This document shows positions 1,982 through 20,789 of a DNA stretch of 32,000 bases, piece by piece (positions within the stretch are counted from its first letter, which is position 1; each line of letters opens with the position of its first letter). The position numbers and the translations under genes were made by a program. The stretch spans positions 1,980,001 to 2,012,000 of the forward strand of contig NC_005070.1 of assembly GCF_000195975.1 (NCBI RefSeq), in the 5' to 3' direction. The DNA comes from Parasynechococcus marenigrum WH 8102 (GTDB taxonomy: Bacteria > Cyanobacteriota > Cyanobacteriia > PCC-6307 > Cyanobiaceae). The notes beneath the pieces are model-generated. The model was not told the DNA's origin, searched no databases, and saw only the letters and a list, made by a program, of their open reading frames with translations.

Positions 1982-2018
1982 CTGACCGTCCAACGCTTGG
2001 TACTCTGGTGGAGCCTCT

Positions 2019-2107
2019 GGAGAGGTGGCTGAGTGGTTGAAAGCGGCTCCCTGCTAAGGAGTTACAGGAGGCAACTTCTGTCGAGGGTTCGAATCCCTCC
2101 CTCTCCG
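2019..2107 (+). tRNA. tRNA-Ser (anticodon GCU), long variable arm, CCA not encoded
   Basis: Acceptor stem GGAGAGG (2019-2025) pairs with CCTCTCC (2100-2106), discriminator G2107. T arm is GAGGG-TTCGAAT-CCCTC (2083-2099). Anticodon loop is CTGCTAA. The 89-nt length fits a class II tRNA. Confidence 0.9.
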
Positions 2108-2109
2108 TT
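2089..2109 (+). repeat. attL core (tRNA 3' end): TCGAATCCCTCCCTCTCCGTT
   Basis: Direct repeat partner at 10053-10073. Confidence 0.65.
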
Positions 2110-2220
2110 TCAAGGTCTTCCCTGACCTTCCCATTTCTTCCCAAATCCACTGGGGTACAACGGGTCTTGCGAATTTGAGTTCCCAGGAATTCCCACTAAT
2201 TCTCCTGATTTGCCTCTGAA

Positions 2221-2264
2221 TTGGGGTAGGAATTGGGGTAGGAAAAACTTGACTGGGGTAGGAA
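2221..2264 (+). promoter_or_regulatory. three direct copies of (T)TGGGGTAGGAA, candidate integrase arm-type binding sites (attL arm)
   Basis: TTGGGGTAGGAA at 2221-2232 and 2233-2244 is a perfect tandem, and TGGGGTAGGAA recurs at 2254-2264. The same motif recurs next to attR. Confidence 0.55.
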
Positions 2265-2291
2265 GATATCTGTGAGGTCGGAATCCCTGAG

Positions 2292-3569
2292 ATGCCTCTT
2301 ACAGACTCGGGTGTGCGGTCTCTGACTGCGACCGACAAGATGCAGAAAAAGAGTGTCGGAAACTGCCTCTACGTGGTGGTAGAACCTTCGAAGAAGGGGG
2401 GTGGCAAGTCCTTTTACGGCGAGATCCGTTTCCCGCCAGGGGGTGGCGGACAAAAGGTCAGGGTCTGCATAGGTCCCTACGGCACTGCTCCAGGGCAATG
2501 GACCTTGAAGGCAGCAAAGGACGAATGGACCCGAATTCGCGCCTGGTCGCTGGAGACGGGCAGAGACCCCAGAGAACTGAATGGCAGGGGTAGGAAGCAA
2601 AACCAGGACCAAGGACCCTCCAAGACGCTTCAGGACGCCATAGACGGGTTCCTGAGCACCAAGACGTCGCTGAAGGAGTTCACCCTCACCAACTACCGCA
2701 GGCAACTGGAGAACCAGGTTCGGGAGTGCATTCCAGGGGCAACGCCACTTCGCGAACTGGAATGGGACAACGGCGGGAGGGAGAAGGTCGTTGCCCTGCG
2801 GGAATACATCGAGGACAGAGGCAGTTACGACCAGGCATTTCGGGTGCAGAAGGTCCTGGCACAGGCACTGGACTACGCAATCCTCCAGGGGTGGATGCGA
2901 CGCAATCAGAACCCAGCAACCAAGCAGAAGGGAGAAGAGAGCAAGCACGACCCGAAACACCATCCCCATATCCAGTGGGAACAGGTGCCAGAACTGCTGG
3001 AAGCAATTCACCTGAACCGCTGCTCAGGGCACGTTCAGTCGGTCATGGCACTGAAGCTTCTGCTCATGACCTTTCTCAGAGCAGGGGCACTTGCTCGTCT
3101 GAAGTGGAAGTGGATCAGCAGAAAGGAGAACCTCCTGGTGATTCCTGGAACCACTCCAGGACTGAAACGCACCAAGAAGACAGAAGACCTCCCACATCAC
3201 GTCCCGCTGACCAAGGAGATGAATGCACTGCTGAAGCAGGCAAAGCAGATGAATGGGCACCTGCCGTATGTCTTTGGTCCTGTCCGCGAGCAAAGCAGAT
3301 ATCCACATTTGGACCCCGAATCACCCAACAACCTCCTCAAGGGTTTGGGGTACAGAGAAGTGCTGCGTGCTCATGGTTGGAGGTCATTACCTCTGACCGC
3401 AGGACAAGAAGTTCTCAAGGCACCTCACGACATCATCCAAAGACAGATGGGGCACCTGATTGGCGACAAGGTCAGAAAGGCATATGACAAATCACTCATG
3501 CTGGAAGAACGCAGAGACTTCCTAGAGCAATGGTGCAAGTTATTGGTCAAAAATGGTTTGAAGATTTGA
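2292..3569 (+). CDS. int: site-specific tyrosine recombinase (P4-type phage integrase)
   Basis: 425 aa. The N-terminus LTDSGVRSL..GNCLYVVVEPSKKGGGKSFYGEIRF resembles the arm-binding domain of P4-like integrases. The C-terminus carries HGWRS..GH..KAYDKS (the H-x-x-R and Tyr region). The gene lies about 185 nt downstream of the tRNA. Confidence 0.9.
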   Translation: MPLTDSGVRSLTATDKMQKKSVGNCLYVVVEPSKKGGGKSFYGEIRFPPGGGGQKVRVCIGPYGTAPGQWTLKAAKDEWTRIRAWSLETGRDPRELNGRGRKQNQDQGPSKTLQDAIDGFLSTKTSLKEFTLTNYRRQLENQVRECIPGATPLRELEWDNGGREKVVALREYIEDRGSYDQAFRVQKVLAQALDYAILQGWMRRNQNPATKQKGEESKHDPKHHPHIQWEQVPELLEAIHLNRCSGHVQSVMALKLLLMTFLRAGALARLKWKWISRKENLLVIPGTTPGLKRTKKTEDLPHHVPLTKEMNALLKQAKQMNGHLPYVFGPVREQSRYPHLDPESPNNLLKGLGYREVLRAHGWRSLPLTAGQEVLKAPHDIIQRQMGHLIGDKVRKAYDKSLMLEERRDFLEQWCKLLVKNGLKI

Positions 3570-3580
3570 AGGCATAAAAA

Positions 3581-3610
3581 GCAGCAGGGTGACTAATCCT
3601 GCTGCCTTTA
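3581..3610 (+). terminator. hairpin after integrase
   Basis: GCAGCAGG (3581-3588) pairs with CCTGCTGC (3598-3605), a perfect 8-bp stem with a 9-nt loop, followed by CTTTA. Confidence 0.45.
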
Positions 3611-4065
3611 TGACCATTTTATGTACCATGACTAAAATACACCAACCCACACAACCAAAGGGTTGGCGAAGCGATTGGTTGCTTTGAATACTAACCGAGC
3701 ATTAAAGTCCGAAAACGCGGGAGTTTTATGGATCTGAATGCTAACTGAGTATGCGCCCAATCACTTCTTTCTAATTGTACTACAAAGTTGATAATAATGC
3801 AACGATCTTACTACATACGTAAATCAAACATTGGACTGTTAATCTGTTAATGTGTTATCAATTTCTGCATAAGGCGTCTTATTCCTGATGTCCTTGCAAA
3901 GTGGTCATTTCGGAAATGTCAATTTTATATGGTTGAGCGAGTGATCTAAGAGAGGTTGCTATCGATCGATTACCTTCTCAAGATCGCAATCTATATAAAT
4001 AAATACATATATGACATGGAATTATATGGAATTGTCCATATAAAATGGAATCAGTGACATGAATG

Positions 4066-4100
4066 AAAAAAGACCCCTCCTTGCCGAAAAAGGAGGGGTC
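4066..4100 (-). terminator. strong intrinsic-terminator-like hairpin oriented for the minus strand
   Basis: GACCCCTCCT (4072-4081) pairs with AGGAGGGGTC (4091-4100), a perfect 10 bp stem. A6 at 4066-4071 becomes the U-tract on the minus strand. There is no T-tract on the plus side. Confidence 0.45.
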
Positions 4101-4156
4101 TAAAAACACGAAAAATCTACCACCTTTATTTATAAGTTCTACACCCAAGAAGACAT

Positions 4157-4333
4157 ATGCCTTCTCGATCAAACGGAAAGAATATCAGCATTCATTTCAC
4201 AGAGGATAAACTTTCTCTGTTGGATGCCTTTGAAGAATATCACAAACAGAACTACATCAATCGTTCTGGATGGGTCAAGCAACATATGAAGAAAGCATTG
4301 ACCGAAAACAAAAGACAACTTGCATTTAGATGA
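4157..4333 (+). CDS. small ribbon-helix-helix (CopG/Arc-like) DNA-binding protein, 58 aa (below ORF-track cutoff)
   Basis: Translation is MPSRSNGKNISIHFTEDKLSLLDAFEEYHKQNYINRSGWVKQHMKKALTENKRQLAFR. It shows a beta-strand, helix, helix pattern with RSGW at the start of helix 2, as in RHH proteins. It is the first gene of a tightly packed operon. Confidence 0.55.
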   Translation: MPSRSNGKNISIHFTEDKLSLLDAFEEYHKQNYINRSGWVKQHMKKALTENKRQLAFR

Positions 4334-4334
4334 A

Positions 4335-4460
4335 ATGAAAACTTATCGAATACCAGGCGTTCACGCAGAGATGCTCAAGACTCTTGCACGCAAACTGCGA
4401 ATGAAGGAGGAAGAGGTCATCGAAGAGATGATTCAAGAAAGATTTAACCAGAAGAAGTGA
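4335..4460 (+). CDS. second small RHH-like protein, 41 aa
   Basis: Translation is MKTYRIPGVHAEMLKTLARKLRMKEEEVIEEMIQERFNQKK. It starts 1 nt after the previous stop, and the next ATG lies 1 nt after its own stop. Confidence 0.4.
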   Translation: MKTYRIPGVHAEMLKTLARKLRMKEEEVIEEMIQERFNQKK

Positions 4461-4461
4461 C

Positions 4462-4704
4462 ATGAATCACTTTTCTGATCAAAGACATTGGGCACCAACT
4501 CAGTTCAATCAGTACCAGCAGTGGGCAGAGATTCATCCCACTGACCCCAACATGTATCGGACATTCTTTTTGCAACGAGACCACCTCGCCAAGAAGGTTC
4601 GTATTCGTGGAGAAACCAACTGGGTCTATGGAGAGGTGCCATCAACGATTCGTGTGGCGCATCCAATGCATCTAGCAAAGATTCGTTCAGGCACCCTGTT
4701 CTAA
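4462..4704 (+). CDS. hypothetical protein, 80 aa
   Basis: ORF-track entry, positioned as if translationally coupled in the 4157-5336 operon. I recognise no motif. Confidence 0.5.
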   Translation: MNHFSDQRHWAPTQFNQYQQWAEIHPTDPNMYRTFFLQRDHLAKKVRIRGETNWVYGEVPSTIRVAHPMHLAKIRSGTLF

Positions 4705-4718
4705 AAAAGGAGATACAA

Positions 4719-5336
4719 ATGAAGTCCTATAAACAATTCGTGAGCGAGGCAAGAGAAGCAAAGGCATTTCTTGCTGGTGAACTACCTCTCAGTCAAAGAA
4801 AGAAAAAGAAGGTTGGTCAGAAGGTCATATCGAAGCGAAAGTCCAACGACCTGTCCCAACGGAATGGAGCATCAGGAATTTCGCCCTCGTCGAACCCGTC
4901 TCCAGAGGTCGATAACAGCAATGACATTCATATTGGTGGCAACTATCTGGGACGTCCCGACTACTCCGAATCCATAGACCCCCTGGTCGACGTGATGAAC
5001 CGTCTGTATCCCGTCCCTGAATCGAAATTGAGGGAGGATACGCAGTCGTCGTTCTATGTCTTTCGCACTGATACTCAGCAGGTCTTGGCGCGGGGAGTAG
5101 TCGGGTATGACAACGCCAAGCAACGTGCCTCCTACCTCCGCAAGAGACATGGTCTGAAGTTCGACCAGGTGCGTTTCAAGAAGGAGGGAGCGAAGACTGG
5201 TGGATCAAGACGCAGGACTGGTGGTCAGACCTTTAGAGGTGGTCGTGTTGACACTGCAAGAAACTACAACCCCTCCAAACGGGGTTACTTCAGAGGTGTC
5301 CATCATCCCGATGGATCCTATGGAGACCTGGATTAG
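4719..5336 (+). CDS. hypothetical protein, 205 aa, Lys-rich N-terminal part and Arg/Gly-rich C-terminal tail
   Basis: AAGGAG lies 6 nt upstream of the ATG. The tail reads GGSRRRTGGQTFRGGRVDTARNYNPSKRGYFRG. I recognise no family. Confidence 0.65.
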   Translation: MKSYKQFVSEAREAKAFLAGELPLSQRKKKKVGQKVISKRKSNDLSQRNGASGISPSSNPSPEVDNSNDIHIGGNYLGRPDYSESIDPLVDVMNRLYPVPESKLREDTQSSFYVFRTDTQQVLARGVVGYDNAKQRASYLRKRHGLKFDQVRFKKEGAKTGGSRRRTGGQTFRGGRVDTARNYNPSKRGYFRGVHHPDGSYGDLD

Positions 5337-5526
5337 GAGTCCTCAGAGGTCTCACTTTGCTGGATAGGACTTAGTAACCGCAAAGGTATTCGGAAACAAA
5401 GACGTCCGACTGTATTGACTGATCTTGCGATCCTTAAACCTTTTATGCTACTTATACTTGTATTAGTATTTATTTCCTCTTCTGACAAGGGTATGGATCT
5501 TTATTATAGGTTCGATAATAGTTGGT

Positions 5527-5727
5527 GTGATTGCCTGGATCTATGACGCTTATGTTTCTATGAAGAAGGATGAGGAGATCGCACGACTCAGAGATGAATT
5601 GACTCAGAGGGACTCAAAGTTGTCAAAACTCAAGGAACTAAAAATGTTGCTTGATGATGGAACGCTTAATGAGAATGAATTCGAGTTGATGAAATACGAA
5701 CTTATCAACAATGAACAAGAAGAATAA
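5527..5727 (+). CDS. SHOCT-domain small protein
   Basis: The C-terminus LKELKMLLDDGTLNENEFELMKYELI fits the SHOCT motif. The same frame is open from 5467 and there encodes a hydrophobic helix (VWIFIIGSIIVGVIAWIY) with no ATG/GTG/TTG start. Confidence 0.55.
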   Translation: MIAWIYDAYVSMKKDEEIARLRDELTQRDSKLSKLKELKMLLDDGTLNENEFELMKYELINNEQEE

Positions 5728-5773
5728 ATTCGTTGGATTTTGACTCTATATTGATCTTCTTGCCCTCTCTCTA

Positions 5774-5941
5774 TTAGGACTCTTCAGAGGTCTCTCTCTG
5801 GGGGATAGGACTTGAGTTGAGGTCTGACCGTCTTGACTCTTCCTCCACCTGCATCAACCTCTCCACAAGGTTGAGGGTGTCGTTGGGAGACCACTCCCCA
5901 TCGTCACCCCACTTGAGTGATGAGAGTTCAGTGGGGGACAT
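5774..5941 (-). CDS. possible small acidic protein, 55 aa
   Basis: My translation is MSPTELSSLKWGDDGEWSPNDTLNLVERLMQVEEESRRSDLNSSPIPQRETSEES. The opposite-strand 66-aa ORF (5817-6017) is Ser-rich and looks like its shadow. Evidence is weak. Confidence 0.25.
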   Translation of the reverse strand: MSPTELSSLKWGDDGEWSPNDTLNLVERLMQVEEESRRSDLNSSPIPQRETSEES

Positions 5942-6113
5942 CGATGGGAGTTCTGGGGCGTTGAACCTCAGGGGTCAGAAACCTCAAAAGTCCCCACTAA
6001 GACAGGACTTTCACTGAAGAAATTCTGAAGACTGGTTCGTTGTGATACCTATTGGGAGGGATTGACATTCACAGCGTCATGATCTGCTTGCCGTGCTTGT
6101 AAAAGATCGTCAT

Positions 6114-6434
6114 CTATTTTTGTTGAAAACTGTTGATCCGAGTATCTGTCATGTATTTAACCTCTTGGTAATATTCCAAAATCTCACTTTCGTGATCTTC
6201 TAGACAAGATATCAATGGTACTAATTTCTTATTCATCTGGTGATAAAACCTTAATCGATTGCGCTCTGCCTCAATTCCTGGGTAAGTCAATGCCATGCCA
6301 TTAAATCTTTTGATCTGATCCACCACGCTGTGAAATGATTTTGCATAAGAAGCACACGGATCGGGGACCAGAGGTCTCGCCATCGCAGGATTGGCAATCG
6401 AGAGTAAGGAAATGGCGACCAAAAGGTTTTTCAT
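6114..6434 (-). CDS. secreted hypothetical protein, 106 aa
   Basis: The N-terminus MKNLLVAISLLSIANPAMA looks like a signal peptide. The body is mixed and helical-looking. Confidence 0.6.
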   Translation of the reverse strand: MKNLLVAISLLSIANPAMARPLVPDPCASYAKSFHSVVDQIKRFNGMALTYPGIEAERNRLRFYHQMNKKLVPLISCLEDHESEILEYYQEVKYMTDTRINSFQQK

Positions 6435-6604
6435 TATTGCTCTTGATCGGGAACTCGACTCACTAGGGCGGCGAGAGATATTAATCCTCCGGTTATCACT
6501 ATTAGGGCACTCGCCTGGTCTCCCATCTTGGTAGTGCCGATCGCAAACATCAGACCTGATGATGCGAATAGAGCAGACCTAATCCACTTGTTTTTTATAT
6601 GCAT
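6434..6604 (-). CDS. small two-TM membrane protein, 56 aa (below cutoff)
   Basis: Translation is MHIKNKWIRSALFASSGLMFAIGTTKMGDQASALIVITGGLISLAALVSRVPDQEQ. Its TAA stop overlaps the ATG of the 106-aa gene (TAATG). Confidence 0.4.
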   Translation of the reverse strand: MHIKNKWIRSALFASSGLMFAIGTTKMGDQASALIVITGGLISLAALVSRVPDQEQ

Positions 6605-6633
6605 TTTCAAGAAATCAGAGGTTCATGATCTAA

Positions 6634-6726
6634 TCAGTGAGGAAGACCTTGCATCATCCAAGACTCATACACAAAGAAGAGAAGAAAGAAGAGGACGATT
6701 CCGATGACCAGTAGTTTTCCGTTCAT
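6634..6726 (-). CDS. possible 30-aa hydrophobic peptide
   Basis: Translation is MNGKLLVIGIVLFFLLFFVYESWMMQGLPH. It lies 29 nt upstream of the 56-aa gene on the same strand. Confidence 0.25.
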   Translation of the reverse strand: MNGKLLVIGIVLFFLLFFVYESWMMQGLPH

Positions 6727-6910
6727 GAGTAGTGTCTCTCGGACCGTGCTGATGTGATTTTGCCTTGCTTATCTGAATCCCCGACGGGAACTGGCATCGA
6801 CACAGCATCGATGCGTTGTGACCATAAACATGTTGTACTGGATTGTCTGTATCTTCTAACCCCAATCAAACGCTCCGATTTTGTGGATTTGGATAGGAGT
6901 TGTGAGGTCC

Positions 6911-7090
6911 TGGTAACGGATTAACGGATAACAGACCCAAACCAGAAATTAGGGGTGCTTCGGTGCCCCTATTTTGACGTCTGAGCGGTCTCTTGGCGTC
7001 CGATCAGGGCAGCAGACGTTGGACTGTTTCTGGTTGTCCACCAAACCCTTGTGGAGATGGCAAGCACAGATTAGGAAGCAGAGGAAGTAC
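6911..7090. repeat. copy A of a roughly 180-bp imperfect direct repeat (partner at 7915-8090)
   Basis: Shared blocks with copy B are TTAACGGAT.., CCCAAACCAGAA, the AGGGGTGC hairpin, GGGCGTCC, GGGCAGCAGACG.TGGA and CTGGTT.TC.ACCAA.CC. The offset between copies is exactly 1000 bp at the hairpin. Confidence 0.6.
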
Positions 7091-7134
7091 TGGTCAAAAC
7101 ACTGGGACTGGGACGAGAATATGGGTTCCGTGGG
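6949..7134 (-). pseudogene. start-less truncated paralogue of the Cys/His-rich ORF 7949-8197
   Basis: The minus frame reads ..CFDQYFLCFLICACHLHKGLVDNQKQSNVCCPDRTPRDRSDVKIGAPKHP*. The full copy reads ..TFLCLPIDSCHLHQGLVDNQRQSSVCCPDWTPKERSSTKKGVPEHP*. No start codon occurs after the upstream TGA. Confidence 0.35.
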
Positions 7135-7260
7135 TCACTTTTATATTACTAGATTGCTTTACAAGCGCTTCTGGTAGAGACCGGTCGCGACAGTGGTTCT
7201 GAACCCTTGAAGACTACAGATAAGCGCGTTACGACATGGGAGTAAGTTTTCTCTTCCCTC

Positions 7261-7626
7261 ATGCTTACTGGAACTGACCTGCTCACCAAGGTCAAAGAAC
7301 TTGGTGATGTCTCCAAGACCGAACTGGCAACTCAGTGCGGTTATGTTTCCAAGAAGAAGGATGGTTCTGACCGCGTCAACTTCACTGCCTTCTATGAGGC
7401 ACTTCTGGGTGCCAAGGGCGTTGAGTTGGGTTCTGGGGGTGCTGGTTTAGGCAAAGGCGGTCGGAAGTTGTCCTACATCGCCACGGTGCAGGGCAATGGC
7501 AACCTTCTGATCGGCAAGGCATACACCGCCTTGCTCGACCTGGAAACAGGCGATGAGTTTGAAATCAAACTGGGCAAGAAGGCAATTCGTCTGATCCCTG
7601 TGGGTGGTTCGGAGGAAGAAGATTGA
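7261..7626 (+). CDS. cyanobacterial AbrB-type (cyAbrB) transcriptional regulator
   Basis: 121 aa. The N-terminus is MLTGTDLLTKVKELGDVSKTELATQCGYVS. The C-terminal AbrB/SpoVT-like segment is NLLIGKAYTALLDLETGDEFEIKLGKKAIRLIP. This domain order is typical of the cyanobacterial AbrB clade. Confidence 0.75.
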   Translation: MLTGTDLLTKVKELGDVSKTELATQCGYVSKKKDGSDRVNFTAFYEALLGAKGVELGSGGAGLGKGGRKLSYIATVQGNGNLLIGKAYTALLDLETGDEFEIKLGKKAIRLIPVGGSEEED

Positions 7627-7652
7627 TTCCTGATTCACAGAAGACAGTCTTG

Positions 7653-7688
7653 CCCCTATGGTTCCCGTACGGTCCATGGGGATTTTTA
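7653..7688 (+). terminator. hairpin plus T-run after the cyAbrB gene
   Basis: CCCCTATGG (7653-7661) pairs with CCATGGGG (7674-7681) with one bulge, followed by ATTTTTA. Confidence 0.4.
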
Positions 7689-7695
7689 TGACCCG

Positions 7696-7887
7696 ATGCC
7701 GTATCACCCCTCCAAGGAGCATCTGGACAATCAGATTCCAAATGCTTTTAAGACGATCAACGGAGTGTTGAAGGATCTTCGAGCATCTACTGGTGCCGAT
7801 GAGAGGTACATCAGCATGATGTTGGATGCCATGGCACGGGACTGGGAGCAGAAAAGCGCCTCTCGTGATGGTTTTGGGTTTCGCTGA
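7696..7887 (+). CDS. hypothetical protein, 63 aa
   Basis: ORF-track entry directly downstream of cyAbrB and followed by the terminator at 7951-7975. No motif recognised. Confidence 0.4.
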   Translation: MPYHPSKEHLDNQIPNAFKTINGVLKDLRASTGADERYISMMLDAMARDWEQKSASRDGFGFR

Positions 7888-7914
7888 CATCCTTCATGAT
7901 CCTTCTACTCTTCA

Positions 7915-8090
7915 AGCGATTAACGGATTAACAGTCCCAAACCAGAACTCAGGGGTGCTCCGGTACCCCTTTTTTAGTGCTTGATCGCTCTTTGGGCGTC
8001 CAGTCGGGGCAGCAGACGCTGGATTGCCTCTGGTTATCGACCAATCCCTGATGGAGGTGGCAGGAATCGATGGGCAGACAAAGGAAGGTC
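7915..8090. repeat. copy B of the roughly 180-bp direct repeat
   Basis: See copy A (6911-7090). Confidence 0.6.
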
Positions 8091-8197
8091 GGGTGGTAGT
8101 TGAAATATCTGCAGTAGAGGCATACATGCTCACCGTGAACTGCAGGTTGAAGAAACCCATGAGGAAGAAACCTCCATTCCTCAGGTGGGTTGGTCAT
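7949..8197 (-). CDS. Cys/His-rich small protein, 82 aa
   Basis: Translation is MTNPPEEWRFLPHGFLQPAVHGEHVCLYCRYFNYHPTFLCLPIDSCHLHQGLVDNQRQSSVCCPDWTPKERSSTKKGVPEHP. The C-terminal half is conserved at protein level in repeat copy A. Confidence 0.45.
   Translation of the reverse strand: MTNPPEEWRFLPHGFLQPAVHGEHVCLYCRYFNYHPTFLCLPIDSCHLHQGLVDNQRQSSVCCPDWTPKERSSTKKGVPEHP
7951..7975 (+). terminator. intrinsic terminator (hairpin plus T5)
   Basis: AGGGGTGC-TCCG-GTACCCCT followed by TTTTT. The paralogous hairpin at 6951-6975 is AGGGGTGC-TTCG-GTGCCCCT-ATTTT. Confidence 0.55.
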
Positions 8198-8418
8198 GGA
8201 CTATCCCGCGACTGGACCCAGTACTAATATATCTGTACCAACTGCTTAGCAACCTAATAGGGGTCATAGATGAGTCTCGTGTCCAGTCTCAAAAAAGGCA
8301 GAAATTGAGAACCCCTGCAAAAACTGGATTTCTTGGTTGATCTTCTGATGAAAGACCAACCAAACTCATTTATCAACATTGATCACTTCCCTTCGTCCGC
8401 CTGCCTCAGTTTCTTGAG

Positions 8419-8562
8419 ATGACAGGACTCAGCACCAGCACCATCTATCGCTGGATGACGGACGGGACCTTCCCAAAGCAAATCCAGTTGGGTTCTCGCT
8501 CTGTCGTCTGGAACGAACGGGACGTCATCGACTGGATGAACGCACAAAATGCAAACACCTAA
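8419..8562 (+). CDS. AlpA-family (MerR-like HTH) excisionase/regulator, 47 aa from the ATG
   Basis: The segment ..LPQFLEMTGLSTSTIYRWMTDGTFPKQIQLGSRSVVWNERDVIDWMNAQ matches the AlpA/Xis pattern (tGlS.sTiYr.m..G.FP....G.r.v.W...ev..W). The frame is open from 8383, but the only canonical start is ATG 8419. Confidence 0.65.
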   Translation: MTGLSTSTIYRWMTDGTFPKQIQLGSRSVVWNERDVIDWMNAQNANT

Positions 8563-8649
8563 AAGTGTGTTGATCGAGGACTTCTGACCCTCATTAAACA
8601 TAGGTGGGGAACCAGGAGACAGAAAACTCCCTGTTTTTACTAGACTAAT

Positions 8650-8693
8650 GGGGGGGGGGGAAATCTCATGTCCTGAGATCAATCTCCCCCCCC
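8650..8693. repeat. G11 ... C8 homopolymer-flanked inverted repeat
   Basis: G run at 8650-8660, then ATCTCA/TGAGAT inner palindrome, then C run at 8686-8693. Confidence 0.6.
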
Positions 8694-8797
8694 GAAGTAA
8701 AAAATTATGTTGTGTTGCTTTGCACATATGCGTCACTTTGTTATAGATGATACGCGTTTTACTGTTTTGAAGAGGACAATAAAAAGAAAACTTCCCG

Positions 8798-8965
8798 ATG
8801 CAAGAAATAAAACTGGGCAATTCGTGCAAACGATTACACACGTATGAGTGCGGGGAAAGGCACTTTGTGCGTATCACAAGGGGTGTCTGCCTTGAGTTTG
8901 ATAAGCAATGGGATGCAGAGATGACTTTGCTTAATCTACGTAAGTGCGGTCTTATATCCGTATGA
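8798..8965 (+). CDS. possible Cys-containing mini-protein, 55 aa (below cutoff)
   Basis: Translation is MQEIKLGNSCKRLHTYECGERHFVRITRGVCLEFDKQWDAEMTLLNLRKCGLISV. It is the only sizeable ORF in the plus-strand unit that ends at the 9089-9120 terminator. Confidence 0.3.
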   Translation: MQEIKLGNSCKRLHTYECGERHFVRITRGVCLEFDKQWDAEMTLLNLRKCGLISV

Positions 8966-9088
8966 ATCCGTATAACAACCCTGTTGATAAAGCATCAGAG
9001 GATTGACCCACAGAGAAAGTAATCAAGGAAGACATACAAAAAACCCCTAACTAAATACCCACAGCACTTTCTCCCCAGGGCAGTCAGA

Positions 9089-9120
9089 AGGCAGGGCGTT
9101 CACGCGTCCTGCCTTTTTTT
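9089..9120 (+). terminator. strong intrinsic terminator
   Basis: AGGCAGG..GCG-TTCA-CGC..CCTGCCT stem followed by T7 (9114-9120). Confidence 0.7.
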
Positions 9121-9152
9121 GTGCCTACTCGTCAGTGCCCCATCCATGCATG

Positions 9153-9179
9153 AAAAAAGGAGCAGCACGAATCTGCTCC
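9153..9179 (-). terminator. minus-strand intrinsic terminator (T3)
   Basis: On the plus strand, A6 (9153-9158) is followed by GGAGCAG-CACGAAT-CTGCTCC. Read on the minus strand this is a hairpin followed by U6. Confidence 0.55.
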
Positions 9180-9272
9180 TTCAGAGGGGTATGTGTCGAA
9201 CCAGGAGGTTCTCGGGAACCACCACAATCGCCCACTTAAGTGCTGTGTCGTTAGTGCTGTTCACAAATTGCC

Positions 9273-9297
9273 AAAAAAAGATCGTCCTCTCGGACGA
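9273..9297 (-). terminator. minus-strand intrinsic terminator (T2)
   Basis: On the plus strand, A7 (9273-9279) is followed by TCGTCC-TCTC-GGACGA. On the minus strand the hairpin is followed by TC and T7. Confidence 0.5.
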
Positions 9298-9426
9298 CCC
9301 ATCTCGACGCAAGGAAAGTCTTCCTTCTTCCGATGCCTCGGCAGGTATCAGGTACTACTCGATCTAGGAGGTTCTTGCCGACTCAGTGGATCCGACCCGT
9401 GCTCTTCCTCTCTGATTGCTGAGCAC

Positions 9427-9452
9427 AAAAAAGGGCAGGTCCCACCCCGCCC
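9427..9452 (-). terminator. minus-strand terminator-like hairpin (T1), probably ending the 96-aa gene transcript
   Basis: On the plus strand, A6 (9427-9432) is followed by GGGCAGG-TCCCAC-CCCGCCC, a 7-bp stem with one mismatch. Confidence 0.4.
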
Positions 9453-9573
9453 CAGTTCGACGCATTGAGGGAACTGGTCCCTGTGAAAGAACTATTCCCC
9501 ATGACGCCGCACTTGGAAGTAGTGAGAAATACTTAGATCATTGCCATAGGCAGAGCAAATCAGTTCTGAGTGA

Positions 9574-9864
9574 TCAGGGTTCTGCTGAGGCACCCCATAA
9601 CGGTTCTGTCCGCTTCCACCCCATGGACTTCAGGTTGCGCCAGATGGTTTCAGCGTCCTCCTGAGGGACGTGCCTGCGTTCCTTCAGCAGTGGTGGTTGT
9701 CCGTCAGGCATTGCCATTCCACGGTCCATGAACACCTTCGGGTCACGGACCCATGCCTTGTCATCCCGATGAAACCGCCACACCCAATTGGTGCCAGGGT
9801 CGACCAACCATCCTTCACGCATGATCAAGGAGTAGTAGTACACCTGTTCTAAACAGTCATGCAC
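9574..9864 (-). CDS. hypothetical protein, 96 aa (Trp-rich)
   Basis: ORF-track entry MHDCLEQVYYYSLIMREGWLVDPGTNWVWRFHRDDKAWVRD... It reminds me of small picocyanobacteria-restricted island proteins, but I cannot name the family with confidence. Confidence 0.5.
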   Translation of the reverse strand: MHDCLEQVYYYSLIMREGWLVDPGTNWVWRFHRDDKAWVRDPKVFMDRGMAMPDGQPPLLKERRHVPQEDAETIWRNLKSMGWKRTEPLWGASAEP

Positions 9865-9931
9865 GACGTCGGCAACAGGTGCTGCTGAAAGTCCCGCACT
9901 TGGGACGTCCGATACCTCTTATATGCAGCAG

Positions 9932-9990
9932 TTCCTACCCCCTCTTCTCACGTCTTCCCACTCGTTTTGGGGTAGGAAATGGGGCAGGAA
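9932..9990. promoter_or_regulatory. three copies of GGGGTAGGAA-type motif next to attR (one inverted, two direct)
   Basis: TTCCTACCCC at 9932-9941 is the inverted copy. TTGGGGTAGGAA is at 9967-9978 and ATGGGGCAGGAA at 9979-9990. Confidence 0.55.
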
Positions 9991-10052
9991 ATTCGCCAAA
10001 AGAGGGTCTTTTTCTTCCCACGTCTAGTCATACCAACTCATTTGGGGGTTAC

Positions 10053-10073
10053 TCGAATGACTCCCTCTCCGTT
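10053..10073 (+). repeat. attR core: TCGAATGACTCCCTCTCCGTT
   Basis: 19/21 identical to 2089-2109. The upstream GGGTT(ACT)CGAAT continues the resemblance to the tRNA T-arm. Confidence 0.65.
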
Positions 10074-10320
10074 GAACACCAGAGCTGGCTCCTGATTGGA
10101 GATCCCAGCTCTGGCCCTGGCCTTCAACAACTTTCGGCAGAATTGGAGGTGGCGCCTCAGTGCTTAATGAGGCTGGAGCAGGCGAGCAGCAGGCAGAACC
10201 AACCGAAAGACCGCACGGCTTGATATGAATGAATTTCACTCAACAAAACCACAACTAATGTTGGGATTTATTGCTTAAGGAAGTCGTGAGCAGCTCCTGG
10301 GCCCTTGGTGCCGTTGCTGA

Positions 10321-10677
10321 ACTCCGCAAGAAACTGAATCTGCCTCTCGTGTCGAAGAACGCCGAAAGAACTACAACTGCGACATCACATATGTAACAAA
10401 TAGCGAGCTGGGCTTCGACTATTTGTGCGACAACATGGCTCAAGATCCGAAGCATCTAGTACAACGGCAACCCCACTATTGCATTATCGACGAAGTCGAC
10501 TCAATTCTGATCGGCGAGGCCAGAACTCCATTAATCATTTCCGGAAAAGTGGAGAAGCCAAAGCAAAAGTTCTCACTAGCTGCATTCATTTCTACAAAGC
10601 TTGAGCATGGTCAAGACAGTGACAATGACGAATTCGAAGCCTTTGGAGATATGGCCAAACCATCAGTGCACTGTTAG
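10321..10677 (+). pseudogene. secA: secA gene fragment (internal piece of the preprotein translocase ATPase)
   Basis: The open frame reads ..[57 protein letters not shown].., the SecA NBD1 Walker-B (DEVD) region. Only about 118 codons remain, bounded by stops, with no N- or C-terminal parts. Confidence 0.75.
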
Positions 10678-10728
10678 CGTTAAAAACGTCTCTACATATC
10701 GACAGTGTTAGCAACTTCATTTTAAATC

Positions 10729-11715
10729 ATGGCCCCATCTCCCGAATCCATTCTGTTTGAATCGCTCTTCTTTCAATGGGCGCAAGTCAACTGCGAGTCT
10801 TTTGCTGTCAACGAAGAGCAAGTCCTGATTGAGGAGGGAGTCGCCACACCTGACCTTTTTCTTCTTCTCGAAGGCGGAGCCACGGTGCGCACAGCACTCG
10901 AAACCGAAGACGCTTCTCAGGATTCCGTCGACCTAGCTGAACTTTCCCCCGGCCAATTTGTTGGCGAGATGTCCCTGCTGGAAGACCGCCTTCCGGTCGC
11001 CACCGTCATCGCACAGCCGAACAGTCGATGGATCCGTGTTCGCTACAGCGACTTGATCGCCGCCATTGCGAGTGACAAAGCACTGGCTTCGAGTACCTAT
11101 CAGGTGTTTGCAGGAAAATTGGCCCTACAACTGAGTCGTCAGAACGCATTCATCCACCGATGGCCAGGGCAAGACATCGAACCACTGCGCAAAGTTCTGT
11201 TGGTATTCGGTGAATGGAATGAACTGGATGTGGCCTGGCTGGAAAAGACCGGGGAAAAGGTTGACCTATCAACCGGCACAGCATTCATCAAGGAAGGTGA
11301 GGCCCTTGATCGTCTTTACATCGTTCTCGATGGCGAAGCCGAGGTGATGATCAACGTGGAAGGCGCATCTACCACAGTGGGGAGCTCAAGGCGCGGGGAA
11401 ATTCTGGGGGAGATGAGCTTTCTCAACAGCGACGAACAAGCCACTGCAACCGTTCAAGCCCGCGAGGCCATGGTCTTGCTGGCTGTGGATAAGACGAGTA
11501 TCCGCCAACAGCTGACGGTTGACTTGGCCTTTGCTGAACGTTTTTACCGTTCTCTCGCTGTTCTGCTCTCCCATCGCTGTCGAGATCAAATGATGTCGCG
11601 GGGGATGGCAGCCCAGGCCTTGGCGCTTGAAGAACTGGATCTGACGACTCTGGGCATTGTGAGCACAGCCGGGCGACGATTTGAGTGGCTTTGCTCGGAG
11701 GTCTCAAAACGTTGA
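10729..11715 (+). CDS. tandem cyclic-nucleotide-binding-domain protein (probably the N-terminal module of the downstream ABC exporter)
   Basis: Two cNMP-binding signatures are present, FVGEMSLLEDRLPVATVIA and ILGEMSFLNSDEQATATVQA. It overlaps the next ORF by 31 nt. Confidence 0.8.
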   Translation: MAPSPESILFESLFFQWAQVNCESFAVNEEQVLIEEGVATPDLFLLLEGGATVRTALETEDASQDSVDLAELSPGQFVGEMSLLEDRLPVATVIAQPNSRWIRVRYSDLIAAIASDKALASSTYQVFAGKLALQLSRQNAFIHRWPGQDIEPLRKVLLVFGEWNELDVAWLEKTGEKVDLSTGTAFIKEGEALDRLYIVLDGEAEVMINVEGASTTVGSSRRGEILGEMSFLNSDEQATATVQAREAMVLLAVDKTSIRQQLTVDLAFAERFYRSLAVLLSHRCRDQMMSRGMAAQALALEELDLTTLGIVSTAGRRFEWLCSEVSKR

Positions 11716-12902
11716 AGAGCCTGAAAGCCCTGCGCGGCCTTCTCAAGACCTCTGCAACACAAACCACTCAGGACCTTGTACGCCTGCTCTGGCGACATGG
11801 ATGGCCCAGCCGTGTTGTTGCTTTGCCACGCGATTGGTGGGATCAAGCCAGCGAGCTCGAAGGGGGGCTGTGGATTGCAGCAGATCAGCAAAGCCCAGCG
11901 CAGTGGTGGCTGGTCCAGCAACGCCAAGGCGCAATTCAGATTCATGCGTTAACCGCAGCAGAGGGATCGACCAGCCATCCCCAAGACTTCCAGCCTCAGG
12001 CCGTGAGCCTCTGGCCAGCCATGGCCTTCAGCACACCAGCACGCTGGAGCGACCTGCAACGCCAACTCAAACCGTTCGCTGCGATCCGAAGCGCCATGCC
12101 GGCGGCGTTTCTCCGCGCCGGAACTTGGCTGATGTTGCCGATATTGCTGATCGCCTTGCTGGGGCAGCTCATTAGCGTTCCAGTGGCTCTGTTCTTGGCA
12201 GGCCTCAGCCTGTTGTTCGGCCAGGTTCTCGATAACCAATGGCATCGGCTCTGGCTCAACCGCAGTGCACGGCAGCGCGCGGGTTTGGGCCTCGTGGGCA
12301 TGCAGAAAGTGCTCCGCCTACAGCTTCCCGTGATCCGGACTCTGGGCGGTGCAGGTGCAACCGCTTTGGCTCTTTCCCTTCAGCAGATCGGTCATCAACT
12401 CCCCCTCGCGATCGGTCGATTGCTACCCGCGATCACGCTGTTCCTATTCAGCAATCTGGCCTTATGGATATGGCGTCCCCCACTCGGTGCCGTCAGCTTG
12501 TTCGGATGCGGCCTTTGGTTGCTTGCAAACCATGGTTTATCGGAACGCTCTCAAAGACAACGCAACCAACAACTCCCCCATCAAGGTCTCGCACTGCTCC
12601 GCAGCCAAGAACTAATTGAAAACTGTTCCACGTTGCGTCTTGCAAAAGCAGAACAACAGGCACTGAACTGGTGGATCGAGCCCGAACGTGCAGCCGAACA
12701 GCAGCAACCATGGCTGGATTGGCTCAGCGCACTGCAGAGCTGGAGCACCGTCTTACTGGCCACCATGCTGATCATGGCTGCCATCGTGATCGCGCCGGTC
12801 CGTAGCGACCAATGGCTAGCCTTCAATTTAGTTGGCATTCAATTCGCCACGATCCGCGAACTCGGGCAGGCGGGCAGGCGTTCAAGACCTGGAGAGACCT
12901 AA
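11685..12902 (+). pseudogene. ABC exporter transmembrane-domain fragment (frame broken at its 3' end by an 8-bp duplication)
   Basis: 405-aa ORF with multiple hydrophobic helices, for example WLMLPILLIALLGQLISVPVALFLAGLSLLFG. It ends at ..GQAGRRSRPGET* immediately after the GGGCAGGC GGGCAGGC tandem at 12864-12879. Confidence 0.7.
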
Positions 12903-13702
12903 AACACCAGTGGAAGGGTGCACAGGTGTTAGTGAACAGCCCATCCGAATCGCGGCCGGGAGCATCGGATCCAGGCGAACTGAACGGTGATCTTGAAGTA
13001 CGAAACCTCAGTTTTCGCTACGGAGCAGACACACCATTAGTGCTCTCCAACGTCAGCTTTTCGGTTCAAGCGGGGAGCTTTGTTGCGATCGTCGGGTCAT
13101 CAGGGAGTGGGAAAAGTACCCTACTTCGCATTCTGTTGGGCTTTGAACAGCCTCTCACTGGACAGGTGATCATCGATGGTCAAGACACCTGTGACCTGCA
13201 ACATGAATCGCTGAGGCGGCAGATCGGCACCGTTCTCCAAGACACGCGGTTGGTGGGAAACTCGTTGATGGAGGTGATTGCTGCCGGTCGTCCTCTGAGC
13301 GTGGAAGAGGCCTGGAAAGCTGCTGAAGACGCTGGCTTGAGCGATGACTTACAAGCACTGCGCATGGGATTGCAAACCCTGGTCCCCGCAGGAGGCAGCA
13401 ATCTGTCCGGCGGTCAACGTCAGCGACTCGCCATCGCAAGAGCGCTGGCTGGACAGCCTCGGCTGTTACTGCTGGATGAACCCACCAGTGCGCTGGACAA
13501 CACCACCCAGGCCCACGTTCTGCGCAACCTTGAACAACGCGCGGTGACGCGCGTGATGGTGGCGCATCGGCTGAGCACTATCCAACATGCAGACGTCATC
13601 CTCGTTCTAGAGAATGGGGAAATCGTTGAACAGGGAAGCTACAACGACTTGCTCAAGCAACAGGGAGCCTTCACACAGCTGATGGCACGTCAATTGATCT
13701 AA
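12812..13702 (+). pseudogene. ABC exporter ATPase-domain fragment (continuation of 11685-12902 in another frame)
   Basis: Walker A is GSSGSGKST, the signature is LSGGQRQRL, Walker B is LLLLDEPTSALD and the H-loop is VAHRLST. Removing one 8-bp repeat unit joins it in frame to the TMD ORF. Confidence 0.75.
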
Positions 13703-13706
13703 ACCG

Positions 13707-15929
13707 ATGGCAATCTTTCGTAGCCGTGCAGTTGATGCTGCCAACCAAGCTGAAACACTCGACACGCCATTGGTTTTACTCAGGCCGCAACTGAGACAAC
13801 GTTTCAATAGCAATTTGAGATTGTGGAGGGATTTGAGCATCCCTCAGAACAGCAACCATCAAGTGTGGACGGAGGAACAGATACAACATGACCCCACCGA
13901 GTGTGCAGCGGTGAGCCTTTCAATCATTCTGAGGTATCACGGTAGTTATCAACCGATCAGCACAATCAGACATGCTTGCGGGGTATCAAGAGACGGAAGT
14001 AATGCCGCCAATTTAGTATGCTCAGCCCGCACATTTGGCATGAATGCCAAGGGATACAAGAAGGGGCTGAAAACACTCCAAACCGTGTCCTTACCTGCAG
14101 TGGTGTTCTGGAATTTCGATCATTTTCTGGTTCTTGAGGGGATCGATGAGCAGCGCTTTTGGATTAACGACCCAGCCACCGGACGACGATGCGTTGAACT
14201 TGAAGAATTTGACCGTTGCTACACAGGCGTGGTGATCACGATGCAACCGGATCCATCGTTTGAACCCACAGGCAAAGCACCACACGCCGTTCAGCAGCTT
14301 GGTGCATGGTTGAAGAGAGGATCCAAAGTCAAGCGCTGGGGCTTCCTGCTCATGCTGGGAATCAGCGCTGGAGTGCTCAGCCAGACAACACGGGTACTTG
14401 TTGAGCCAGGCCTTTGGCCCTTCATCGGCCTTGCCCTGGCTGTTGTGCCACTCGGACAGGTGCTGAGTCGAGAACTCGAACGACAGCTCCGTAGGGAATT
14501 ACAAGAACAACTGATTAGCCTTCCGGATTGGATCCTCCAACAACATTTCAGTCATGAATTAGCAGGACGGCTGGAGCGCGTTTCAGCACTCTGTGAACAG
14601 CTGCGCCTTCGCATTGGCCAGAGCCTGCCGCTTGTGCTGGGAATGGCGGTTTGGACAGTGGTGCTGCTGGTGCAGAACACGTTTCTTGGTCTGATCGTGA
14701 TCGGAGGCCTCTCGCTTTGGACTGCCGTTAAGCAGCGCAACGAATCCATGAACAGCAGCAGAGATGTGCGGTCACGCATCAGCATGAACAGCGCCGGACT
14801 CACCCTTCAGGCTGGATTGAAGGATCCTGAAACCTTGAAAGCATCGGCCCTGGAGCAGGACCTGTTCCTGCGGTGGTCTGGCTTGGATGCCATCGCAACA
14901 CGCCAACGTCAGAACTTGTCCTACAGCCGTGAGCTGCAGGACTGGGTACCACAAATCGTGTACTGGAGTCTTCCGGTGTTGGTGTGGAGTGTGGCGAGTC
15001 ACACCGCAAATGCTGGTCTCACAGTGATCATTGGCACCATGGGATTGTGCCTGGCTTTGCAGCAGCTTCAGGAGATGTGGAAGGCTTGGGGGGCCAGCAA
15101 AAGAGCCATCCTTGCGATTCGAGATTTACAAGAGCAGCCCCGAGATCCACTGTTAAGCGCTGGACAACACCAATCGAACATTCCATTTGAAACGGGGCCT
15201 GCCAGCGTGAGTGTCGAGGGCGTTGACTTTGGCTATATCCCGGTGCTTCCGCCATTGATTCAAGAGCTGAGTCTGAGTGTGGACAAGGGGCAAAAAATTG
15301 CCTTGGTGGGGGGATCAGGATCAGGCAAAATCACACTGGCGCGGCTCATGGCGGGCCTGGTGCAGCCAAACAAAGGGGTGGTCAAGATCAATGGAATACC
15401 ACTGCTGGAGATGACCCAACAGGAACGAAGCCAAGCCATTGCCATGTTGCAACAGGGGATGCCGCTGTTTTCGGCCACCGTGCGCGACAACCTCACCCTG
15501 TTCAATTCAGCCATCAGTGATGGCGAGATTCAAGCGGCATGTGAAACAGCAGCCATCTGGGAACGGCTGCAACAATTACCTCAGGGCCTCAACACCACCC
15601 TGGGTGTGAACGGTCAGGACCTCAGTGGAGGAGAACAGCAACGACTGCAACTGGCTCAAGTTCTTTTACAACGACCATCCCTGTTGATCCTGGACGAAGC
15701 GACGTCGGCATTAGAAGCTCAAACCGAAGCGCGCATCGAACAAGCAATTCAAGGTCTGCATTGCACCCAAATTGTGGTAGCCCATCGTCTCAGCACGGTG
15801 AGAGATGCTGATGTAATTATCGTTTTAGATCATGGCAAGATCGTGCAACGGGGATGCCATGACGCGCTGTTGAAAGAGGAAGGGTCACACTATTGCAATC
15901 TTTTGTTACTGGAAGACGCCAATCTCTAG
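13707..15929 (+). CDS. bacteriocin-type ABC exporter with N-terminal C39 peptidase domain (NHLP/Nif11-type peptidase/permease/ATPase)
   Basis: C39 motifs are QHDPTECAAVSLSIILRYHG, CGVSRDGSNAANL, FWNFDHFLVLEG and INDPATGRR. A 6-TM region follows. Walker A is GGSGSGKIT, the signature is LSGGEQQRL and Walker B is LLILDEATSALE. The native start may be GTG 13863. Confidence 0.9.
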   Translation: MAIFRSRAVDAANQAETLDTPLVLLRPQLRQRFNSNLRLWRDLSIPQNSNHQVWTEEQIQHDPTECAAVSLSIILRYHGSYQPISTIRHACGVSRDGSNAANLVCSARTFGMNAKGYKKGLKTLQTVSLPAVVFWNFDHFLVLEGIDEQRFWINDPATGRRCVELEEFDRCYTGVVITMQPDPSFEPTGKAPHAVQQLGAWLKRGSKVKRWGFLLMLGISAGVLSQTTRVLVEPGLWPFIGLALAVVPLGQVLSRELERQLRRELQEQLISLPDWILQQHFSHELAGRLERVSALCEQLRLRIGQSLPLVLGMAVWTVVLLVQNTFLGLIVIGGLSLWTAVKQRNESMNSSRDVRSRISMNSAGLTLQAGLKDPETLKASALEQDLFLRWSGLDAIATRQRQNLSYSRELQDWVPQIVYWSLPVLVWSVASHTANAGLTVIIGTMGLCLALQQLQEMWKAWGASKRAILAIRDLQEQPRDPLLSAGQHQSNIPFETGPASVSVEGVDFGYIPVLPPLIQELSLSVDKGQKIALVGGSGSGKITLARLMAGLVQPNKGVVKINGIPLLEMTQQERSQAIAMLQQGMPLFSATVRDNLTLFNSAISDGEIQAACETAAIWERLQQLPQGLNTTLGVNGQDLSGGEQQRLQLAQVLLQRPSLLILDEATSALEAQTEARIEQAIQGLHCTQIVVAHRLSTVRDADVIIVLDHGKIVQRGCHDALLKEEGSHYCNLLLLEDANL

Positions 15930-16137
15930 CCTCGATAAAATGATTTAGCGCATACGGATGAACGGCAACAAACCAATTCGGCAATCATTTATCACTTCAA
16001 ACAGACCGCAAAATGCGGCACGCCAAGCAATCAAATGCAGCCTGAAGCATAAGCTTCGAGAGCCGCCCGACAGCCTTGAAGAAAACAGGTGATTGCACAC
16101 ATATTCCACCTCACGAAATCACAACAATGATCACTGC

Positions 16138-17734: not shown

Positions 17735-17751
17735 GACGACAGCAAAGGGTC

Positions 17752-20754: not shown

Positions 20755-20789
20755 GACTGTCAGGATTCAGGACATTCCAAGTCGTCCCG

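Follow-up and report, generated by a model that had tools for sequence, protein, structure and literature searches.

The subject of this study is a block of four small genes in a 32,000-nucleotide stretch of the chromosome of Parasynechococcus marenigrum WH 8102 (NC_005070.1, positions 1,980,001 to 2,012,000 of the forward strand). This whole stretch is referred to below as the window, and positions are counted from its first letter unless another locus is named. The genes are designated orf58, orf41, orf80 and orf205, according to the number of amino acids they encode. The window is marine Synechococcus chromosomal DNA with a guanine-plus-cytosine (GC) content of 61-64%, in which a low-GC stretch that extends from position ~2.1 kb to ~16.8 kb starts at a tRNA-Ser(GCT) gene and includes the block. 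An earlier note, made from the sequence alone, had described the block as a tightly coupled operon headed by two tandem ribbon-helix-helix (RHH) proteins. The note had considered that it might serve as the maintenance or immunity switch of a mobile element, or as a toxin-antitoxin or abortive-infection module.

The four open reading frames (ORFs) follow one another with intergenic gaps of 1, 1 and 14 nt. Their positions and the gaps were found exactly as the earlier note had given them, and the sequence also shows the AAGGAG site in front of orf205, the Lys-rich stretch of the orf205 product (residues 26-42) and its Gly/Arg-rich tail (residues ~159-192). An in-frame TTG 15 nt upstream of the orf41 start would yield a 46-residue form, but other loci conserve the ATG. 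Independent loci encode conserved homologs of each of the four proteins (63-99% amino acid identity by tblastn), and for each ORF the pairwise ratio of nonsynonymous to synonymous substitution rates (dN/dS), calculated against three lineages, lies within 0.04-0.22 (0.09-0.13 for orf58, 0.04-0.12 for orf41 and 0.05-0.07 for orf80). The junctions are also conserved. The TGA-A-ATG arrangement is kept, and in a second lineage the stop codon of orf41 overlaps the start codon of orf80 (ATGATGA). Gene order is invariant in every marine locus that carries a long orf205. By these comparative measures, the four ORFs are confirmed as real genes under purifying selection, far beyond what chance would produce, and the tight coupling proposed earlier is borne out by the gaps, the junctions and the dN/dS values.

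Table 1. Features of the four-gene block and of the element that carries it (positions in the window).
Feature	Position	Strand	Evidence or remark
tRNA-Ser(GCT)	2018-2108	+	ARAGORN, Rfam; the 3' end, 2089-2109, is the left attachment (att) core
Three GGGGTAGGAA repeats (at 2223, 2235 and 2255)	2223-2264	+	In the interval between attL and the integrase; candidate integrase arm-type sites
Tyrosine integrase, 425 residues	2292-3569	+	Inward-facing; Pfam Phage_integrase and phrog_1, E = 3e-40
GC hairpin and T-rich run after the integrase stop	3577-3609	+	Inverted repeat I4; kept in the BOUM118 and A18-40 loci
Constrained non-coding region	3920-4070	+	Candidate promoter and RHH operator; identity, alignments
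Intrinsic-terminator hairpin of a leftward transcript	4071-4101	-	GC-rich; lies 5' of orf58
orf58	4157-4333	+	RHH protein, NikR/CopG class (hhalign, dN/dS)
orf41	4335-4460	+	41 residues; possibly a minimal second RHH protein
orf80	4462-4704	+	80 residues; conserved; no family or fold matched
Shine-Dalgarno site AAGGAG of orf205	4707-4712	+	Sequence; 6 nt ahead of the orf205 ATG
orf205	4719-5336	+	Disordered basic N-terminal half and conserved C-terminal core
AlpA-family protein, 47 residues	8419-8562	+	Pfam PF05930, E = 3e-17; likely excisionase or activator
Right-end cluster of GGGGTAGGAA-type repeats	9932-9990	9932 (-), 9969 (+), 9981 (+)	
Right att site	10053-10073	+	Right end of the element; degenerate copy of the tRNA-Ser 3' end, 19/21

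Sequence models in Pfam, PHROGs, NCBIfam and the PDB gave no match to orf58 at useful thresholds, and single-sequence hhalign comparisons with CopG, Arc and Mnt remained at the level of noise. The profile of the orf58 family, in contrast to these, aligned over residues 9-50 with residues 3-42 of Escherichia coli NikR (a query identical to PDB 1q5v), covering the whole strand-helix-helix unit in 40 columns with an hhalign score of 24.0. None of 300 shuffled NikR controls reached this score (mean 8.2, maximum 17.3), and a genuine RHH pair, CopG and NikR, scored 24.7 in the same setup. The motif that caps the N terminus of helix B in RHH proteins (G/N-x-S/T/N) is present in orf58, where YINRSG aligns with YNNRSE of NikR, and is invariant across the orf58 family. 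In addition, a relative with 81% identity was annotated as CopG/Arc/MetJ by the Joint Genome Institute. These alignments support the assignment of orf58 as an RHH DNA-binding protein of the NikR/CopG class.

The orf41 product was compared by hhalign with the RHH proteins NikR (best alignment of residues 3-39 of orf41 with 5-42), CopG (1-31 with 1-34) and Mnt (4-39 with 10-45). In the comparison with Mnt, 3 of 200 shuffles reached the observed score. The slot for a 41-48-residue protein at this place in the operon is kept with very different sequences in three other loci (L005, L027 and L029, introduced below), whose products fit a strand/helix/helix pattern by eye. The orf41 product is thus compatible with the RHH fold and may be a minimal second RHH protein, an assignment that these data support weakly. 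The proposal that both leading genes encode RHH proteins therefore holds well for orf58 (0/300 shuffles) and tentatively for orf41, whose alignments are weak and non-significant. Homology to the Arc/Mnt pair, which the earlier note had invoked, is not supported, as the corresponding scores do not rise above noise.

Upstream of orf58, the block is set apart from the integrase gene by a hairpin with a T-rich run that is likely the integrase terminator. Because the integrase has its own terminator, the four genes would form a separate transcription unit. The non-coding DNA that follows is unusually constrained: between loci its identity is 84-91%, as compared with 64-81% at third codon positions, which argues that about 150 nt upstream of the operon are under purifying selection. 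This region contains an invariant CTATATAAATAA at 3991-4002, ATGGAAT heptads at 4016, 4026 and 4045 (three of the six copies in the window) and a perfect palindrome, TTATATGGA-N4-TCCATATAA, at 4022-4043. The typical targets of RHH repressors are short repeats that occur in arrays, in direct and inverted orientation. The omega protein of pSM19035, for example, binds heptad operators, and the clustered 7-bp direct and inverted repeats found here resemble them. The heptads and the palindrome at 4014-4051 are accordingly described here as a candidate RHH operator. A 17-nt word from this operator gave 24 matches in IMG/VR, all attributable to chance.

Between the candidate operator and orf58 lies a second hairpin. 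It occurs in three sequence versions, each of which retains an uninterrupted stem of 12-15 bp and a U-run on the minus strand. In two versions, G.U pairs of the minus strand correspond to A.C mismatches of the plus strand, such that the minus-strand fold is 6-10 kcal/mol more stable (-28.6 vs -22.8 and -28.3 vs -18.6 kcal/mol). The strand asymmetry of the stem, together with the U-run, identifies this hairpin as a predicted intrinsic terminator of a leftward transcript. This suggests a short countertranscript, possibly an unannotated small RNA, which would start somewhere within 4102-4200 and have its 3' end at the hairpin.

By tblastn, the complete block was found in order in Synechococcus BOUM118 (locus L001), in A18-40 (L002) and on three long metagenome contigs (L003-L005), as well as on several short metagenome contigs (L006 and L023-L026). 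A metagenome scan recovered four short contigs, and a scan of genome contigs yielded only five loci, all of the short orf205 form from freshwater described below. The module order, i.e., an RHH-like gene, a mini-RHH-like gene, orf80 where present and an orf205-like gene, recurs in lineages with 42% and 32% GC. The 42%-GC locus (L029) encodes, in this order, a 63-residue RHH-like protein that carries an NRS motif, an inserted protein of 188 residues, a 42-residue RHH-like protein, and homologs of orf80 and orf205. In the 32%-GC locus (L027), a homolog of orf58 (E = 1e-10) and an orf41-like gene of 48 codons are followed by a homolog of orf205, and orf80 is absent. In yet another locus (L019), an orf58-like RHH gene is divergently transcribed from an adjacent orf205-like gene. 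The genes thus do co-occur elsewhere; the earlier note had named the opposite outcome as one that would refute its reading.

The orf80 product had no match in Pfam, PHROGs, NCBIfam, PADLOC or the PDB. Thirteen database relatives were found, all of marine origin, and the homolog in the 42%-GC lineage is 50% identical. Because divergent loci keep the RHH regulator or regulators together with orf205, and orf80 is missing in one of them (L027), the recurrent pair is RHH and orf205. On this pattern of gene content, we regard orf80 as a frequent but dispensable companion of that partnership.

Likewise, no family was recognized for orf205 in Pfam, PHROGs, NCBIfam, PADLOC or the PDB sequences, in agreement with the earlier note, which had recognized none for either protein. 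A collection of 5.8 billion proteins contains 96 relatives of orf205, and a set of 1.84 billion proteins yielded 143 representatives. All are short, and the 143 representatives include no informative fusions. Conservation is concentrated in a C-terminal core (residues ~105-205), and the N-terminal half is basic and variable. The core comprises the motif FYxFRTD...VLARG..GY(D/E)xAKxxAxxLRKxxGLK(W/F)DQVxFKxE, next a linker rich in Gly, Ser and Arg and then the tail motif RxYNPSKRGxFRG....DG(S/N)(Y/F)xD(L/I)D, seen as the invariant tail YNPSKRGxFRG...DGSYxDLD. An AlphaFold model predicts a confident beta-beta-alpha-beta unit at residues 111-155 (predicted local distance difference test score, pLDDT, ~88-90). 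The beta-tail is predicted with moderate confidence, and the N-terminal half is modeled as disordered.

Two possible identities of the orf205 core were considered, and neither scored above noise. A relationship to GIY-YIG nucleases was rejected, as hhalign scores against I-TevI and UvrC were at the level of shuffled sequences, in comparison with 31.3 for the positive control; the I-TevI query itself matched PDB 1mk0 in 92 of 93 aligned residues (E = 3.6e-60). An AP2-type or integrase arm-type DNA-binding domain was likewise not supported, with hhalign scores of just 9-11, i.e., noise, against five integrase N-termini, the AP2 domain of ERF1 and the N-terminal domain of lambda Int. The AP2 profile PF00847 matched 1 of 32 orf205-family members (E = 0.0055). 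In three proteins (P0075, P0206 and P0222), an N-terminal or central integrase domain is joined to the C terminus of orf205; these are probably chimeras created by deletion or frameshift in decayed elements and not true fusions.

Several repeats and partial copies were observed in the vicinity of orf205. A ~21-nt repeat (TTAGGAGTCCTCAGAGGTCTC / TTAGGACTCTTCAGAGGTCTC) follows the orf205 stop codon (5334-5356) and occurs again about 440 nt downstream (5770-5792). The repeat also encodes the C-terminal ends, which resemble each other, of two small ORFs on the minus strand (5333-5488 and 5774-5941). In L003-L005, a second, partial orf205 C-terminal tail is present ~750 nt downstream of orf205 (~9349-9426).

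The search for orf205 relatives also led to a different type of mobile element. Short forms of the protein (~117-131 residues), which consist of the core only, are encoded by small elements of freshwater Cyanobium, Vulcanococcus and Synechococcus CS-1331. Two sequences from different freshwater metagenomes (L007 and L008) represent the same 10,847-bp circle, with 100% identity and differing only by circular permutation, and a further circle of 9,423 bp (L010) bears the orf205 core as well. Among the products of the circles are a lambda-O-like initiator, a DUF5906 helicase-like protein, a fusion of ParB and a methylase, a serine recombinase and a helix-turn-helix or excisionase-like regulator. 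Since the circles already encode an initiator and a helicase-like protein, the orf205 core is not their initiator. Instead, on the basis of its distribution, we view the core as an accessory gene common to two kinds of small mobile element. Its occurrence in small circular replicative elements points to the C-terminal domain as the ancient core of the module. An integrated relative of the circular elements is found upstream of the BOUM118 element (694-5159 of L001).

Comparison with BOUM118 delimited the element in which the block is located. DNA homology between the two loci begins at 2090 and ends at 10073, with 82-88% identity, and these limits coincide with the att sites listed in Table 1. 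The alignment and the att repeats place the block in a discrete, site-specific integrative element of 7,984 bp, beside its integrase. The flanking core genes (16866-20785), in contrast, are 98.4% identical between the two strains. An element far more diverged than its two closely related hosts indicates turnover and not vertical descent, and the contrast implies that it was acquired independently or rapidly replaced. The repeats at the two ends of the element differ in BOUM118 but occupy the same positions, i.e., three copies of TGTTATGGGAT on the left (~5560-5620 of L001) and two copies of GTGTGGGGGAT on the right (~12535-12560), although the BOUM118 integrase is 85% identical to that of the window. 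These repeats are probably arm-type sites that co-vary with the integrase.

The backbone is shared by A18-40 and the metagenome contigs, but there it is located at tRNA-Ser(CGA), and the integrases are only 36-43% identical to that of the window. From ~100 nt beyond the integrase stop codon, the DNA of these loci is 81% identical. The sharing of a backbone between loci with exchanged integrases and tRNA sites indicates that the integrase/att module and the four-gene module recombine independently. These alignments show that the four-gene module moves between integrase/att modules and between hosts.

Besides the integrase, the block and the AlpA gene, the element contains several small ORFs and genes of the AbrB-like and DUF1651 types. 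Searches of 2090-10073 with Pfam and PHROGs revealed no genes for replication, capsid or transfer. The AlpA gene falls under the 60-residue ORF cutoff, and its presence suggests that the role of excisionase is already filled. A 164-residue ORF on the opposite strand (8383-8877), which overlaps it, is probably spurious. The AbrB-like gene (7261-7626) is flanked by direct repeats of ~170 nt (6929-7094 and 7929-8094, 75% identical), which are arranged alike in the BOUM118 and A18-40 loci and have no Rfam match. Beyond the right end of the element, a 6.8-kb segment (10074-16865) that is absent from BOUM118 represents separate, older island material. It includes a gene for a protein with two cyclic nucleotide monophosphate-binding domains (10729-11715). 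A pair of ABC transporter genes (12812-15929), of which one encodes a C39 peptidase domain, looks like a bacteriocin-type exporter.

The general type of this element is known. Tycheposons and "cryptic" integrase-bearing islands have been described in Prochlorococcus (Hackl et al., bioRxiv 10.1101/2020.12.28.424599), and tycheposon-like insertions in Synechococcus (Grebert et al. 2022, PMC8995045). Like tycheposons, the element in the window has an inward-facing tyrosine integrase beside a complete tRNA gene and ends, on the opposite side, in a partial repeat of that tRNA. It is also similar in that it measures a few kilobases, heads a larger island, accumulates in tandem with other elements and has an integrase that sets which tRNA is targeted. 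It differs in that it lacks the primase, helicase and polymerase hallmarks, which are optional in the definition. We therefore call it tycheposon-like, on the strength of its tRNA/integrase/repeat layout and not of the integrase clade. No description of the RHH/orf80/orf205 module was found in the literature, including these two papers.

Taken together, our favored interpretation, to which we assign a probability of about 0.55, is that the four genes constitute one translationally coupled operon that is the conserved, integrase-proximal and RHH-autoregulated backbone module of a tycheposon-like "cryptic" island residing at tRNA-Ser genes of marine Synechococcus. Dimers of orf58, probably with orf41, would bind the ATGGAAT heptads and the palindrome at 4014-4051 and thereby repress their own operon, and the short leftward RNA that ends at the upstream terminator may add an antisense layer of control. 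Relief of repression would allow the synthesis of orf80 and orf205, the latter composed of a disordered arm that is basic, a small alpha/beta core, a linker of Gly and Arg and, at the C terminus, an acidic peptide that does not vary. The two proteins would then have nucleic acid, or a partner from the host or a helper, as their target in the life cycle of the element itself, i.e., after excision, in maintenance, copying or transfer. They would be neither a poison nor a defense system. With regard to the switch proposed in the earlier note, a maintenance or regulatory role is reasonable because the block lies in a mobile element.

Several observations weigh against this interpretation. The orf205 model is confident for only ~45 residues, a Foldseek comparison of it with the PDB and BFVD returned nothing significant, and binding of nucleic acid or a partner is suggested by amino acid composition alone. 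The alignments of orf41, although in the correct RHH register, have scores of only 11-13, which are non-significant; genuine distant RHH pairs score just 13-15, however, so that the test is insensitive rather than negative. An AlphaFold model of the concatenated orf58, orf41 and orf80 sequences is unusable (mean pLDDT 42; the aligned rows were orf58 homologs only, as MAFFT misplaced them once orf80 relatives had been added), and the helices drawn in it at 16-33 and 36-61 are compatible with an RHH fold but carry no weight. We infer both the operator and the countertranscript from conservation. A consensus scan revealed no sigma-70-type promoter near the block, and in the L003-L005 lineage the palindrome is only partly kept even though the beta-strand of orf58 is unchanged. 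Finally, as the element contains no recognizable genes for replication or packaging, a role after excision lacks an obvious substrate.

A bolder version of the favored interpretation would treat orf80 and orf205 as previously unrecognized mobility machinery of minimalist picocyanobacterial islands, in which orf205 represents a new class of nucleic acid-binding adaptor. Governed by a switch made up of RHH protein and countertranscript, this adaptor would connect the element, once excised, with machinery of the host or of a helper, such as a phage or vesicle export. We consider this extension a long shot.

Other explanations of the block were also weighed. That the ORFs arose by chance, or are the functionless remnant of a decayed element, might be suspected because two of them are shorter than 60 residues and none of the four matches a family. 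The dN/dS values, the conserved junctions and conservation across three divergent lineages and no fewer than 10 loci refute this idea, and we give it practically no weight. A copy-control and replication cassette, similar to copG-RNAII-repB of pMV158, would make orf205 an initiator or origin-binding protein and the heptad region an origin. The layout is indeed alike: a promoter, a mini-RHH protein (~41-45 residues) and then a protein of ~205-210 residues, with a leftward terminator hairpin nearby that would suit a countertranscript. Moreover, the upstream region is AT-rich, highly conserved and contains direct repeats, and the orf205 core occurs in replicative circular elements. Yet those elements carry their own initiator and helicase-like protein, the operon has two extra genes, and the hairpin lies 5' of orf58 and not ahead of orf205. 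The identification of orf205 as a rolling-circle Rep protein was itself rejected, because its invariant columns contain no conserved HUH motif or catalytic Tyr motif of the RepB kind and are unlike those of rolling-circle initiators. No Rep family of PHROGs or Pfam matched, the single Viral_Rep match of one family member (E = 0.08) being noise. Altogether, a replication cassette seems unlikely.

A somewhat lower standing is given to an addiction or abortive-infection system in the style of omega-epsilon-zeta, in which orf58 would be the regulator, orf41 the antitoxin and orf80 and/or orf205 the toxin, and which would stabilize the island or kill infected cells. As in omega-epsilon-zeta and other RHH-led toxin-antitoxin operons, an RHH gene comes first and is followed by tightly coupled small genes, here with products whose function is not known. 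The block is also intact in L003-L005, where the integrase looks fragmented. This fragmentation, however, may be a long-read frameshift artifact of assembly and not decay, since orf41 is frameshifted (~7620-7750) in two of these pilon-polished long-read contigs (L003 and L004) and is intact in L005 and L026. No toxin, antitoxin or defense model was matched in PADLOC, Pfam or NCBIfam (or in PHROGs for orf80 and orf205), and a PADLOC search with the four proteins and five neighboring ORFs was likewise negative. The orf58 protein ends ~8 residues past helix B, and neither it nor orf41 has an extension of the type that would bind a toxin. Nor are the partner genes strictly paired across genomes: L027 lacks orf80 and has the three other genes, and circular elements contain the orf205 core without neighboring orf41 or orf58. 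The toxin-antitoxin and abortive-infection proposals of the earlier note are therefore not supported, and we consider such a system quite unlikely. Slightly less probable still is the exploitation of a helper by a minimalist satellite, with orf80 and orf205 redirecting a helper phage or another export route. This would fit an 8-kb element that encodes an integrase and AlpA and is devoid of genes for replication, capsid or transfer. Small islands of other marine bacteria that carry int and alpA do likewise, such islands appear in tycheposon and PICMI publications, and the divergence of the element at a shared site implies turnover. But neither orf58 nor orf80 has relatives among IMG/VR viral contigs, and orf205 has none there, in 50,697 GenBank phage records or in 72,556 plasmids, a result that also leaves the suggested link to cyanophages without support. 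None of the proteins resembles terminase, capsid or packaging families, and no helper is known.

The favored reading, that of an RHH-autoregulated backbone operon, can be set beside several known systems. The orf58 protein aligns with the N-terminal domain of NikR over the entire RHH domain and has the same NRS helix cap, but it lacks the nickel-binding C-terminal domain. Its small size is typical of RHH repressors such as NikR, CopG and omega; similarity to CopG, Arc and Mnt is not detectable, and DNA binding by orf58 is putative. The immI region of phage P22 (mnt, arc, ant and sar RNA) is alike in that two small RHH-type genes head an operon driving a downstream effector and in that a short antisense RNA, here a candidate, provides a second layer of control. 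It differs in that homology to Arc, Mnt and Ant is absent here, both RHH genes are on one strand and the element is not a phage.

In summary, the element type is already known, and it is common for an operon of a mobile element to start with an RHH regulator. Judged from the database comparisons, what is new is the module of an RHH regulator, a mini-protein, orf80 and orf205, which includes two families without detectable relatives outside themselves. Also new is the connection that the orf205 core makes between marine tyrosine-integrase islands and freshwater circular replicons with a serine recombinase. Much of the gene flow among marine picocyanobacteria is attributed to small islands that target tRNA genes, and the block supplies such islands with a recognizable conserved backbone, in which an RHH regulator and a mini-protein are joined by members of the orf80 and orf205 families. 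These data do not demonstrate a new mechanism or kind of system, but the module is well delimited and a good experimental target. An understanding of its role would reveal how islands without genes for replication, capsid or transfer are controlled and moved.

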